From IMG/VR virus record IMGVR_UViG_3300046817_000369: a DNA stretch of 64,000 bases; one strand, written 5' to 3'. The stretch comes from a virus. The position numbers were made by a program, and so were the translations under genes. The notes beneath the pieces are model-generated. The model worked only from the letters and a program-made list of their open reading frames with translations. It made no database searches and was not told the origin of the DNA. Every line of letters begins with the position of its first letter. Position 1 is the stretch's first letter. This document shows positions 40,892-44,208 of the stretch, piece by piece.

Positions 40892-41074
40892 CCCCACACT
40901 CGCCGCCGCCTGCCCATGCGGCGCCCCGCCGTTCGCCATCCGGCCCGGCGTGGAGCCGGTGCGGCGTGGGGCGATCGATCTTTTCACGCGCCGACAAAAG
41001 GCCCTCGAAGCAGGTGTGGCGTGCGTCGTGCTATGCCGCGCGTGCTGGCTGAAGCGGTTCGGGAGGCGGGCGGC

Positions 41075-41842
41075 ATGACACCGCGCAAGGAAGTCATTGG
41101 CGACGCGGAACTGTGGTTAGGGGATTGCCGGGATGTGCTGCCGATGCTCGGGACGGTCGATTCCGTTGTGACTGATCCACCGTATGGGATTGGATTCAAA
41201 TACGATAGTCACGATGATACACCAGAAGGTTATGGTATCTGGATTTGGTCCATTATCGAGGCGGCTGAGAGTTTATGCCTGTCGGGTTCTCCCGTTTTCG
41301 TATGGCAGGCTCAGAAGAACATCAGACAGTTGCATTCCTGGTTTCCGCGCGATTGGCGCTTATTCATATCGGCTCGCAATTTCACGCAGATGAACCGGGA
41401 CGGGATGCCGCATTCCTATGAGCCAGTAGTGGTCTGGTGGACGGAAGGTGAAAAGTGGCATTCACCGCAAGGTGAAGGAATTGGCGTTCTAAGGGATTTT
41501 CACGTCGCGGATGCCGCTGGCGGATTGCTTCGCAACAAAATATCAGGTGCTTCGTCGCATCCATGCCCGCGGCAAGAAGACGCAATGGAGTTTGTAATCG
41601 GGAATTGGGTTCGTCCATCCGGTGTTGTCCTCGACCCCTTCATGGGTAGCGGCACGACCGGCGTCGCCTGCGCGCGGCTCGGACGCCGCTTCATTGGCAT
41701 CGAAATCCATGAACCGTATTTTAACATCGCGGTGAGACGTATTGAGCAGGCGTATCGTCAGGCGGATTTGTTCGTAAGTCGCCCCACGCCGAAACCCGTC
41801 GTCACCGCCGACCTGTTCGCCGCGCGGGGGGATGGAGGATGA
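41075..41842 (+). CDS. N6-adenine/N4-cytosine DNA methyltransferase (beta class)
   Basis: LWLGDCRDVL, VTDPPYG, HPCPR, VLDPFMGSGTTG. Confidence 0.9.
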   Translation: MTPRKEVIGDAELWLGDCRDVLPMLGTVDSVVTDPPYGIGFKYDSHDDTPEGYGIWIWSIIEAAESLCLSGSPVFVWQAQKNIRQLHSWFPRDWRLFISARNFTQMNRDGMPHSYEPVVVWWTEGEKWHSPQGEGIGVLRDFHVADAAGGLLRNKISGASSHPCPRQEDAMEFVIGNWVRPSGVVLDPFMGSGTTGVACARLGRRFIGIEIHEPYFNIAVRRIEQAYRQADLFVSRPTPKPVVTADLFAARGDGG

Positions 41843-44208
41843 CAATCCAGGTCATTCACGGCGACATGCGCGACGTGCTGCCGACGCTGGAGGCGGAGAG
41901 CGCGCATAGCATCGTCACAGATCCGCCCTACGAACTCGGGTTCATGAACCGCGCCTGGGACAAACGCGGGGTCGCCTTCGATCCCGACACGTGGCGCGCG
42001 GTGCTGCGTGTATTGAAGCCGGGTGGCTACCTGCTGGCATTTGGCGGCACAAGAACGCAACACCGGATGATCTGTGCCATCGAGGACGCGGGGTTCGAGG
42101 TTCGTGACGTTATCGCATGGGTTTACGGGTGCCTGGATGAAAAGACGGAGGTTGCCACGGCAAAGGGCGTCATGCCCTACCATAAAACCTTGATAGGTGA
42201 TCTCGTATTGTGTTATGATCCTTCCAGTAGCGAATATAGTTATCAGCCGATCCTGGAAATCATTGAATATGAATACAACGATACCGCCTACCGTCTTATT
42301 GGAGATTTTGGCGAGCAAATTGTCTCCCGAAACCACCGTTGCATTATTGAACGAGACGGAGTGGAAGTATTCTGTCGCGCTGAAGAAGCCGCACGGGAAC
42401 ACGAAGCGCGTGTACCCATTCTGGAAAGTCTGCCAGAACTGCGAGAAGCCTTATCAAACATGGACACGAGAACAGTCGGTCCGCAACAAAGCGTGCTCGC
42501 ATCCTTGCGCGATAGCTCTGACAGAAGGGCCGCGCGCCAAGCTCCCAATCGAACAACGCAAGGGTCGTCAGATATCGTGCGCGATTTGTGGCGTGGAGAT
42601 ATGGAAGCCGGATGCGTGGCTTCGCAAGGTCATGACCCCGACATGTTCTTACAAGTGCAACGGCGTGTTGCGCGGTTCGGAATGGGCGACCCATGCTCAC
42701 AAGGGCCGAGCCAACTGGACGAGGGAAAGCGAGGATGCGCTCGTGGTCCGGATGACGGGCACCACCAATCCAGCATGGAAGGGTGGCCTTACATACCGAA
42801 ACCGGAAGGGGAAATACGCGGATCAGTCGATCAAGTATGTCCGGTGTCCTCAGATGTTCCTGGATATGGCGCGGAAGGATGGTTACGTGATGGAGCATCG
42901 GCTGGTGGTGGCGAGGGCCGTCGGACGGTCGTTGACCAGGATCGAGACGGTGCATCACAGGGACCACGATGCGACCAGGAATTCCTCGCGGAACCTGATG
43001 CTGTTCGCGACCAATGCCGAACACAAGGCATACGAGCATGGCGCGGCCATCACTCCGCTGTGGTGCGGATTGTGCCATTCCATCACACCGGAAAAGTCTG
43101 GTGTCTGCGAGTGCCGACCGGTGCCTTTGTCGCGGTTCGCGGCGGAGTAGCGTTCCCTACTGGCAATAGTGGCTTCCCAAAAAGTTTAGACATATCAAAA
43201 GCGATCGACCGCGCGGCGGGAGCGGAGCGGGAGGTTGTTGGCATCAAGCCAGGGCACGAAGGATTTGCCAATCGAGGCAATATGTCGAGTGTTCAATCGT
43301 TCAAGGGAACCATGGGAGGCGAAGGCGGTTTCGCCAGGCCATGGATGGATGATCCTGAAAAGGTTGAAGCATACCATCAGCAAACCGCCCCCGCGACCGA
43401 CGCCGCGAAGCAATGGAACGGTTGGGGAACAGCGTTGAAGCCGTCCATGGAAATCATTGCCGTAGCGAGACGACCGTTGAGCGAGAGGACGGTGGCGGCC
43501 AATGTGTTGAAGCACTCTACAGGCGGCATCAACATCGACGCGACACGAATACCGTTAGGCGCCACCGATCCGCTACAAGCCGGCATAGCGGGCCGCGACG
43601 GGCACGGCATGGATACGGCCGGCACGGAAGGCGCCTGGGGGTTTAAGGCGGTTGATCGCGCGGCCGGTCTGGGGCGCTGGCCGGCCAATCTCGTCCACGA
43701 CGGATCGCCCGAGGTCGAGGCCGCGTTCGCCGCTTTTGGTAATGCACCAGGACAGCAACGCTATGTCGGGCCAGAACATGGCGAGAAGCTATCCAAGGGC
43801 ATATATGGTGACTTCGGAGAGCATAGACCGCATGAGCCTCGCGGCGACGCCGGCACCGCCTCGCGATTTTTTTATTCAAGTAAGGCGGATGCGAGCGACA
43901 GAGCCGGCTCACTTCATCCGACAATTAAGCCCATCGACCTGATGCGTTGGCTCGTCCGAATGGTCACGCCGCCCGGTGGCACGGTGCTGGATTGCTTCGC
44001 CGGCTCGGGAAGTACGGGTGAAGCAGCCATGCTGGAAGGCTTCAACGCCGTCCTGATCGAACGCGAGGCGGAATACGCCGCCGACATAAAACATCGCATG
44101 AAACGATGGGGCGGCGGCGATCTGCCATTGTTCGCTGATCCGATACCCGAAGACCCGGACCTCGCGCGGCAGGTGGATTTGTGGCGCGAACCGGAGAGTG
44201 GCGCGTGA
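41839..44208 (+). CDS. Beta-class DNA methyltransferase containing an intein
   Basis: VTDPPYELGFM...WVYG|SGFPKS (split by intein)...HPTIKPIDLMRWL..VLDCFAGSGSTG. Confidence 0.9.
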   Translation: MTIQVIHGDMRDVLPTLEAESAHSIVTDPPYELGFMNRAWDKRGVAFDPDTWRAVLRVLKPGGYLLAFGGTRTQHRMICAIEDAGFEVRDVIAWVYGCLDEKTEVATAKGVMPYHKTLIGDLVLCYDPSSSEYSYQPILEIIEYEYNDTAYRLIGDFGEQIVSRNHRCIIERDGVEVFCRAEEAAREHEARVPILESLPELREALSNMDTRTVGPQQSVLASLRDSSDRRAARQAPNRTTQGSSDIVRDLWRGDMEAGCVASQGHDPDMFLQVQRRVARFGMGDPCSQGPSQLDEGKRGCARGPDDGHHQSSMEGWPYIPKPEGEIRGSVDQVCPVSSDVPGYGAEGWLRDGASAGGGEGRRTVVDQDRDGASQGPRCDQEFLAEPDAVRDQCRTQGIRAWRGHHSAVVRIVPFHHTGKVWCLRVPTGAFVAVRGGVAFPTGNSGFPKSLDISKAIDRAAGAEREVVGIKPGHEGFANRGNMSSVQSFKGTMGGEGGFARPWMDDPEKVEAYHQQTAPATDAAKQWNGWGTALKPSMEIIAVARRPLSERTVAANVLKHSTGGINIDATRIPLGATDPLQAGIAGRDGHGMDTAGTEGAWGFKAVDRAAGLGRWPANLVHDGSPEVEAAFAAFGNAPGQQRYVGPEHGEKLSKGIYGDFGEHRPHEPRGDAGTASRFFYSSKADASDRAGSLHPTIKPIDLMRWLVRMVTPPGGTVLDCFAGSGSTGEAAMLEGFNAVLIEREAEYAADIKHRMKRWGGGDLPLFADPIPEDPDLARQVDLWREPESGA
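42130..43167 (+). mobile_element. Intein (346 aa) in DNA methyltransferase
   Basis: Block A CLDEKTEV at 42130, block B-like SRNHRC, block F/G KVWCLRVPTGAFVAVRGGVAFPTGN followed by Ser+1. Excision restores WVYGSGFPKS. Confidence 0.9.
42269..43150 (+). CDS. Zinc-finger HNH homing endonuclease overprinted in +1 frame inside the intein
   Basis: CQNC..CSHPC, CAIC..CSYKC, NPAWKGG, GYVMEHRLVV...ETVHHRDHDATRNSSRNLMLF; frame open 42197-43150; start codon uncertain. Confidence 0.85.
   Translation: MNTTIPPTVLLEILASKLSPETTVALLNETEWKYSVALKKPHGNTKRVYPFWKVCQNCEKPYQTWTREQSVRNKACSHPCAIALTEGPRAKLPIEQRKGRQISCAICGVEIWKPDAWLRKVMTPTCSYKCNGVLRGSEWATHAHKGRANWTRESEDALVVRMTGTTNPAWKGGLTYRNRKGKYADQSIKYVRCPQMFLDMARKDGYVMEHRLVVARAVGRSLTRIETVHHRDHDATRNSSRNLMLFATNAEHKAYEHGAAITPLWCGLCHSITPEKSGVCECRPVPLSRFAAE

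Follow-up and report, generated by a model that had tools for sequence, protein, structure and literature searches.

A probable mobile composite element in a phage methyltransferase gene: an intein overlapped by a +1-frame gene for an HNH homing endonuclease

The stretch of DNA considered here, IMG/VR record IMGVR_UViG_3300046817_000369 (64,000 nt, called the window below), belongs to a phage genome out of soil and rhizosphere metagenomes, and one of its genes, for an N6/N4 DNA methyltransferase, raises an unusual question. The gene is interrupted by 346 codons that begin and end as an intein does and that read in the middle like off-frame sequence, and over that same middle the +1 frame is open, with two zinc ribbons and an HNH core in its product. 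Is the insertion an intein, is the second frame a gene in its own right, and do the two travel together? The reading favored here, which we consider highly probable, is that of a mobile composite element in which a self-splicing-type intein and a +1-frame gene for an HNH homing endonuclease overlap on one strand.

The splicing domain and its boundaries

The limits of the insertion follow from an allele that lacks it. The closest homologue of the C-extein in a search of 5.8 billion proteins is an intein-less methyltransferase of 417 aa, P0004, whose empty site, read at the protein level, is IAWVYG/SGFPKSLDIG (slashes mark junctions), and this fixes the intein boundaries at 42130 and 43167. The preliminary description of the locus, made from the sequence alone, had given the same coordinates and the ends G/CLDEKTEV and TGN/S, and both stand: the frame runs through all 346 codons without a stop. 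The parts of the gene are listed below with their evidence in brackets (pLDDT, AlphaFold2's predicted score in the local distance difference test; dN/dS, ratio of nonsynonymous to synonymous substitution rates).

41839..44208, plus strand: precursor gene of an N6/N4 DNA methyltransferase, intein-containing, 789 aa (Pfam N6_N4_Mtase E 5e-26; PHROG 67 E 8e-63)
41839..42129, plus strand: N-extein, 97 aa, ending in IAWVYG (82% identity to P0004 residues 2-97)
42130..43167, plus strand: class-1-type intein, 346 codons, Cys1 to Asn346 and then Ser+1 (stretch missing from P0004; boundaries identical in all relatives)
42130..42468, plus strand: N-terminal half of the Hint domain, residues 1-113, with block B VSRNH at residues 65-69 (AlphaFold2, Foldseek, dN/dS, hhalign)
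42469..43020, plus strand: intein-frame read-through of the HNH gene, residues 114-297, a disordered linker without stops (pLDDT ~30; dN/dS 1.81; 0 stops against 6.6 expected)
43021..43167, plus strand: C-terminal half of the Hint domain, blocks F/G, ending in VWCLRVPTGAFVAVRGGVAFPTGN (pLDDT 80-92; dN/dS 0.07; 64% identity over 28 aa to the intein of Mycobacterium phage Hannaconda, E 4e-9)
43168..44208, plus strand: C-extein, 346 aa, starting with SGFPKSLDISK, and stop codon (67% identity to P0004)

The two ends of the insertion form one fold. In an AlphaFold2 model of the intein frame built from 7 sequences, residues 1-113 and 298-346 make up an all-beta domain with a pLDDT of 80-92 (83-92 for the N-terminal half alone), and residues 114-297 stay near 30; this low confidence, together with the relaxed dN/dS, bears out the earlier impression that the middle is off-frame sequence. 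Every top Foldseek match of the model in the Protein Data Bank (PDB) is an intein or Hint protein (AceL NrdHF, gp41-1, hedgehog and DnaE; E 2e-5 to 1e-3, probability 1.00, TM score by target 0.45-0.57). Cys1 and Asn346 are invariant in all seven aligned sequences, as is the terminal T-G-N, and Ser+1 occurs at each locus examined. The T/S-x-x-H motif of block B is present as S66-R-N-H69, with N68 and H69 invariant, and aligns with TPNH of an in-frame LAGLIDADG intein in gp142 of phage Hannaconda (L095:722-2956). That intein occupies the identical site, W-x-Y-G/C...T-G-N/S-G-F-P-K-S, and its Hint halves are homologous to those of the window (hhalign probability 98%, E 1.8e-13), the C-terminal 28 aa being 64% identical.

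Curated models do not recognize this domain: neither Pfam (E <= 1) nor NCBIfam (E <= 10) intein models matched the insert, whether whole or as its ends. The missing match is a limit of model sensitivity and no defining biological feature, and the identification as an intein is therefore based on the fold, the motifs and the homology to the intein of actinophage methylases. One could instead see in the insertion no intein at all, only a read-through insertion or an intron with intein-like ends, given that intein-less HNH inserts of the type called ShiLan do occur in the same methyltransferase family (Mantra gp64, a relative from a metagenome-assembled genome, and PMC11855218). Such an insert would hardly be expected to fold as a Hint domain with inteins as its closest structural matches, to keep Cys1, SxxH, the terminal Asn and Ser+1 invariant, to hold dN/dS at 0.07-0.08 in both halves, or to share homologous Hint halves with an intein at the same site; an Rfam search of 41500-43700 found no intron and no other RNA family. 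We therefore regard the non-intein explanation as exceedingly improbable, and the Hint fold, the empty-site allele and the constraint on both splicing halves support the identification of the insert as an intein. Self-splicing is presumably retained, judging from sequence and model.

Contigs from three soil and rhizosphere runs (X14, X15 and X16), apparently of related intein-less methyltransferases, seem to join across the intein site (42108-43207), for example as WVY-SQGFPKNHDISKA, and filled and empty alleles may co-occur in those sampling campaigns. The joining contigs are a hint only, because their matching sides span just 23-33 nt at 90% likeness.

Two reading frames and the selection on them

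The +1 frame is open from 42197, with a second ATG at 42215, to a stop at 43150, as previously described, and the protein it encodes contains two CxxC...CxxxC ribbons and a core of the form EHR...VHH...N..NL...HK. The features of this frame are these:

42269..43150, plus strand: HNH homing endonuclease gene, +1 frame, 293 aa from ATG 42269, stop TAG 43148-43150 (PHROG, conserved ATG column, dN/dS 0.10)
42431..42508, plus strand: zinc ribbon 1, Cys55, 58, 76 and 80 (invariant columns of alignment A1)
42578..42658, plus strand: zinc ribbon 2, Cys104, 107, 126 and 130 (invariant columns of alignment A1)
42893..43036, plus strand: HNH core, E209-H210-R211...V228-H229-H230...N242-L243...H252-K253 (invariant columns; Pfam HNH_3 over residues 210-251)
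43061..43147, plus strand: unconstrained C-terminal tail of the HNH protein across Hint blocks F/G, in the window's clade only (dN/dS 1.85 in +1 and 0.07 in frame 0; pLDDT <50)
42269..42430, plus strand: doubly constrained overlap; frame 0 encodes Hint strands with block B, +1 the helical N-terminal region of the HNH protein (entropy, dN/dS)

The protein matches eight PHROG HNH families (best E 4.2e-15). Pfam HNH_3 reaches the window's own copy at E 0.0036 and 17.3 bits, under the 24.8-bit gathering cut-off, and is matched by five of seven relatives (best E 2.8e-8). The predicted catalytic residues H229/H230, N242 and H252 are invariant in alignment A1. In the AlphaFold2 model the N-terminal helices are predicted at a pLDDT of 84-91 and the C-terminal tail below 50. 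The model returned 39 matches at E <= 0.001 in BFVD, mostly phage HNH endonucleases, and I-HmuI was the top solved structure in VIA-align, as a weak match (Z 5.3, root-mean-square deviation 4.4, 79 aligned, residues 165-260). A Foldseek search of the PDB with the whole multi-domain model gave nothing significant, and the HNH alignment profile found just weak zinc-finger matches (E > 0.2) among PDB sequences. The protein is presumably an active nuclease with a target site of its own, as its sequence suggests.

Searches with the +1 protein gathered 6 IMG/VR loci, 6 loci in metagenome-assembled genomes, the best 80 of 188 metagenome loci and one 484-kb uncultured phage. The layout was scored with profile hidden Markov models (Hint-N, Hint-C and HNH) in the three forward frames of 95 records, namely the window, these 93 loci and Mantra:

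85 of 95 records: both Hint halves in a single uninterrupted open reading frame (ORF), HNH in +1
0 of 95 records: HNH in frame with the Hint halves
4 of 95 records: Hint-N and a +1 HNH, no Hint-C match (contig end or decay)
1 of 95 records: intein-frame stop between the Hint halves
1 of 95 records: Hint-C in a different frame
4 of 95 records: HNH without any Hint match (L087, L089, L013 and Mantra)

The departures include copies that look to be decaying or incomplete: in L018 a stop interrupts the intein frame, and in L051 the Hint C-half lies in another frame; L010 and L050 miss the Hint C-half and the C-extein though the contig runs on, and L046 has no Hint C-half on a contig that ends near the HNH stop, so that decay cannot be judged there. 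The HNH ORF is still open in all five. A shorter member (L014:2862-3695) has an intein of 278 codons and a +1 HNH without the first zinc ribbon. A contig of a Deinococcaceae metagenome-assembled genome (L013:2469-4391) carries an HNH relative with 37-40% identity in the +1 frame of an in-frame insertion that lacks a Hint domain. Within the same methyltransferase family, this insertion is placed ~18 codons downstream of the intein site and is a ShiLan-like read-through insert at a new site.

Selection was read frame by frame, from codon-position entropy at 12 loci and from NG86 dN/dS values over 71 gapless pairs that are not independent of one another. Both measures swap frames at the Hint/HNH borders:

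Intein codons 1-45: dN/dS 0.08 in the intein frame, 1.48 in +1; intein only
Intein codons 47-100: dN/dS 0.28 in the intein frame, 0.13 in +1; both frames constrained
Intein codons 105-300: dN/dS 1.81 in the intein frame, 0.10 in +1; HNH only
Last 30 intein codons: dN/dS 0.07 in the intein frame, 1.85 in +1; intein only

These regimes confine true double constraint to ~160 nt (intein codons 47-100, ~42269..42430), where variation is low at all three codon positions. The preliminary description had proposed about 880 nt of dual coding; some 880-950 nt are indeed open in both frames, but most of that length is constrained in one frame only. It had likewise placed the HNH frame over the splicing sequences at both ends, and this proved true in the sense of shared constraint for block B, not for blocks F/G, which are overlapped by a clade-specific, unconstrained read-on of the HNH tail; in other clades the HNH stop comes 71-86 nt ahead of the intein end.

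What, then, keeps the intein frame open across a region where its own product is meaningless? When synonymous codons of the HNH frame were shuffled over the ~200 middle codons (5000 shuffles, 8 loci spanning 32-64% G+C), 4.4-17 intein-frame stops were predicted per locus and none was observed in all eight. The window's shuffles had a mean of 6.6 stops and were open in 0 of 5000; the probability of an open frame was 0 in 5000 shuffles at six loci and <= 0.003 at the other two, and one of the relatives has just 32% G+C. Selection holds the intein frame open along the HNH gene, since any stop there would be fatal to the methyltransferase. An intein-frame motif, VP(I/V)LE (42413-42430, in the same column at all loci), might be taken for a conserved element of the linker; it is a forced by-product of +1 YPFWK(V/I)C in zinc ribbon 1 and is also seen, amid stops, in a closed frame of the free-standing homologue L087.

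A pair of compensating sequencing frameshifts as the source of the layout was considered and rejected. The frames are common to 85 independent assemblies, and the window is matched over 41500-42631 and 42654-43900, with 0 differences and 0 gaps, by contigs of an independent soil run; this match excludes the sequencing error that had been raised as an objection.

It could also be supposed that the window's HNH ORF is an inactive relic in an intein that still splices and is inherited vertically, the +1 frame being open for lack of time to decay. Decaying copies exist in the family (the intein-frame stop of L018; L051, L010, L046 and L050 without the Hint C-half), the window's Shine-Dalgarno sequence is weaker than those of its relatives, and the closest sampled relatives are ~70% identical in HNH, with no recent transfer of the window's copy seen. 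Against this, the ORF is intact and keeps all 59 family-invariant columns, including the eight zinc-binding Cys and the HNH residues, and dN/dS across the family's HNH genes is 0.10, all of which makes a relic distinctly unlikely.

Expression and movement of the element

The preliminary description had allowed for a nuclease either separately translated or made by frameshifting, and of the two it is separate coding that gains from the present data. Two loci (L087:2495-3310 and L089:1302-2135) hold a free-standing HNH homologue of 271 aa. It is flanked by small phage ORFs, both of its other frames are closed, and no methyltransferase lies in the vicinity; it may be an ancestor of the intein-borne gene or an escapee from it. 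The free-standing proteins have the same N-terminus and zinc ribbons as the intein-borne HNH and keep the N-terminal motif whose DNA codes in two frames within the inteins, which, with the other frames closed, argues that this region is a real part of the nuclease. In L087 and L089 the gene starts at the ATG column matching 42269, 5 nt after a GGTGAG Shine-Dalgarno sequence. An ATG stands in this column at most of the 77 unique loci, with AAAGGAG lying 9 nt upstream of it in one clade and GGAG lying 10 nt upstream in the window's clade. The start tentatively assigned before, ATG 42269, is thus the most likely one.

Programmed +1 ribosomal frameshifting, which would yield a fusion of N-extein, Hint-N and HNH, might draw on the ~160 nt in which both frames are constrained and on the window's weak Shine-Dalgarno sequence. 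The free-standing relative, which begins at the same ATG column behind a Shine-Dalgarno sequence of its own, the ATG retained at most unique loci, the strong AAAGGAG of one clade and a codon alignment in which no conserved slippery motif was seen all speak for internal initiation instead, and frameshifting appears very unlikely by comparison.

The nuclease may also have a transcript of its own. One sigma-70-like promoter match falls within the DNA that encodes Hint, ~50 nt upstream of ATG 42269:

42190..42219, plus strand: TTGATA, 18-nt spacer, TG-n-TATGAT

An extended -10 element, TGnTA(T)(A/G)A(T), recurs at the Hint LCY(D/N) codons with 5-6 of 6 matches in 51 of 66 unique relatives (perfect TGnTATAAT in 29 loci, 5/6 in a further 22), and T-ending codons at two of these codon positions are enriched over extein controls in G+C-rich loci (21/24 against 36%, nominal p 3e-7, a statistic that ignores shared ancestry). 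An internal promoter for the HNH gene is therefore plausible, with the chances about evenly balanced. A terminator scan found none, and the RNA fold around ATG 42269 was no stabler than shuffles (z +1.48), giving no structure-based signal. The G+C content falls to 45-46% at 42100-42400, the N-terminal Hint region, against ~58-66% in the surroundings, as would suit an element of foreign origin or selection in favor of AT-rich promoter DNA.

Several points weigh against the composite element as described. Besides the silence of the curated intein models, the penultimate intein residue is Gly and not the usual His, a residue that is frequent in inteins and not obligatory. The pairs behind the dN/dS values are non-independent, and shared ancestry is likewise ignored by the codon-choice statistics for the -10 element. 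In the window itself ATG 42269 follows a weak Shine-Dalgarno sequence, GGAA in place of the GGAG of its relatives, and the promoter scan, with 1 site against 0.7 expected, is not significant alone. Splicing, cleavage and translation of the +1 frame, finally, rest on sequence and predicted structure.

There is reason to think that the two genes travel together. Between loci L039 and L044 the inteins are 97.1% identical in DNA over 1032 nt and the flanks align just in patches of 45-53 nt; between L065 and L062/L068 the inteins are 97.8-98.5% identical and the partial flanks 74-87%, and the breakpoints of identity are the intein ends. Nearly identical elements thus sit in divergent methyltransferases, which shows transfer of the element between them and supports the proposal that the Hint halves and the +1 HNH gene move as one unit, the classic homing signature, and agrees with the earlier suggestion of a single homing element. 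The copy in the window, whose nearest sampled relatives are ~70% identical in HNH, gives no sign of a recent transfer.

A course of events may be sketched from these observations. The intein would be translated in the methyltransferase frame, with Hint halves of ~113 and ~49 aa joined by ~185 residues of meaningless, disordered read-through, and the halves would presumably fold and splice the intein out to give a methyltransferase of 443 aa. The 293-aa endonuclease, with its N-terminal helical region, two zinc ribbons and HNH_3-type core, would be read in +1 from its own start, perhaps on a transcript from the extended -10 promoter within the Hint coding sequence. It would then presumably cut intein-less alleles near WVYG/SGFPKS, and repair would copy the whole element in.

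Directly upstream of the interrupted gene lies a second one of the same kind:

40916..41842, plus strand: second N6/N4 DNA methyltransferase gene (Pfam N6_N4_Mtase E 1.9e-24)

The two overlap through an ATGA at 41839-41842 that contains the stop of the first and the start of the second, and the same tandem order of two methylases occurs in Mycobacterium phage Mantra (gp63/gp64).

Comparison with known systems

Inteins with an out-of-frame endonuclease are already known as a kind (published 2025-26 by the Gogarten laboratory). Those described from actinobacteriophages carry the endonuclease in a separate reading frame, as an antisense LAGLIDADG, an antisense VSR-like or a same-strand, frame-3 endonuclease VII-like gene, in genes for DNA polymerase, minor capsid, terminase and thymidylate synthase; methylases are not among the hosts, and HNH occurs in frame only (Gosselin, Arsenault, Gogarten, bioRxiv 10.1101/2025.01.02.630785). 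An antisense LAGLIDADG is also on record for the cyanobacterial dnaX intein (Gorbalenya 1998, as cited there; treated in a 2026 preprint, bioRxiv 10.64898/2026.09.14.751524). The element of the window resembles the actinobacteriophage inteins in having its Hint halves in the extein frame, the endonuclease as a second ORF inside and an unstructured in-frame middle; in both cases there is evidence that the unit still moves, and invasion by a free-standing endonuclease gene is the proposed origin (10.1101/2025.01.02.630785). It differs from them in its zinc-ribbon HNH in +1, its N6/N4 methyltransferase host and its occurrence in uncultured soil and water phages. Second ORFs there are typically outside the splicing domain, whereas here ~54 codons overlap the block B region under double selection. 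In the literature searched, no report was found of a +1-frame HNH within an intein, of such an HNH in the present methylase intein, allelic to the LAGLIDADG form, of a functional overlap with block B, or of the family's wide spread outside actinophages.

A second comparison is with the ShiLan domain of a mycobacteriophage DNA methylase, a hidden out-of-frame HNH without a splicing domain (Arsenault, Gosselin, Gogarten 2025, PMC11855218); inserts of this sort in actinophage methylases had been correctly mentioned in the preliminary description. Mantra gp64, which aligns with the window's exteins, has an out-of-frame HNH of the same type, again without a splicing domain. Common to ShiLan and the window are the methyltransferase family, a zinc-finger and HNH gene out of frame and a host frame kept open, and the two HNH proteins are distant relatives (27% identity, E 2e-5). 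ShiLan is in frame 3, has its site after ...VVARKP and is thought to remain in the protein as a loop, whereas the window has a full Hint domain at the intein site. The presence of the Hint domain means that the window's element is not of the ShiLan type; the Deinococcaceae insertion described above is.

A third comparison is with the intein that carries LAGLIDADG in the DNA methylase family of actinophages (Gosselin et al. 2023, PMC9957025). In Hannaconda the endonuclease is an in-frame LAGLIDADG, and in the window an out-of-frame HNH gene stands in that module's place. A free-standing HNH gene, gp141, is annotated directly upstream of the Hannaconda methylase gp142. We tentatively propose a wider interpretation, which taken as a whole falls somewhat short of an even chance: one intein site and its Hint domain would have accepted two unrelated endonuclease modules, an in-frame LAGLIDADG in actinophages and a +1 HNH in soil and water phages; the free-standing and insert forms would be natural intermediates by which inteins gain or swap endonucleases through invasion by free-standing genes; and in the +1 form the Hint DNA would play a triple role, as it would code for splicing strands, code for the nuclease's helical N-terminal region and hold the extended -10 promoter of the nuclease.

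Whatever becomes of that proposal, the family is a large natural data set on the gain and exchange of intein endonucleases, with at least 188 metagenomic stretches covering 32-64% G+C, and with a single insertion site that is occupied in mycobacteriophages by an in-frame LAGLIDADG and in the present case by an out-of-frame HNH, of which there is also a free-standing relative. Three adjoining regimes of overlapping phage genes, namely single coding, openness only and true double coding, occur within one element, which recommends it as a test case for the detection of overprinted genes. Gene callers see just the long methyltransferase ORF, and the endonucleases are consequently absent from protein databases and the insert resembles an unknown domain. 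The element is of moderate interest as a model of how inteins exchange endonucleases and of how genes overlap.

With the free-standing HNH homing endonuclease genes of phages (I-HmuI-like, HNH_3), finally, the nuclease shares the same catalytic core. Those genes lie between genes or split a host gene, whereas the window's gene is nested in an intein, which would take it out of the host protein post-translationally.

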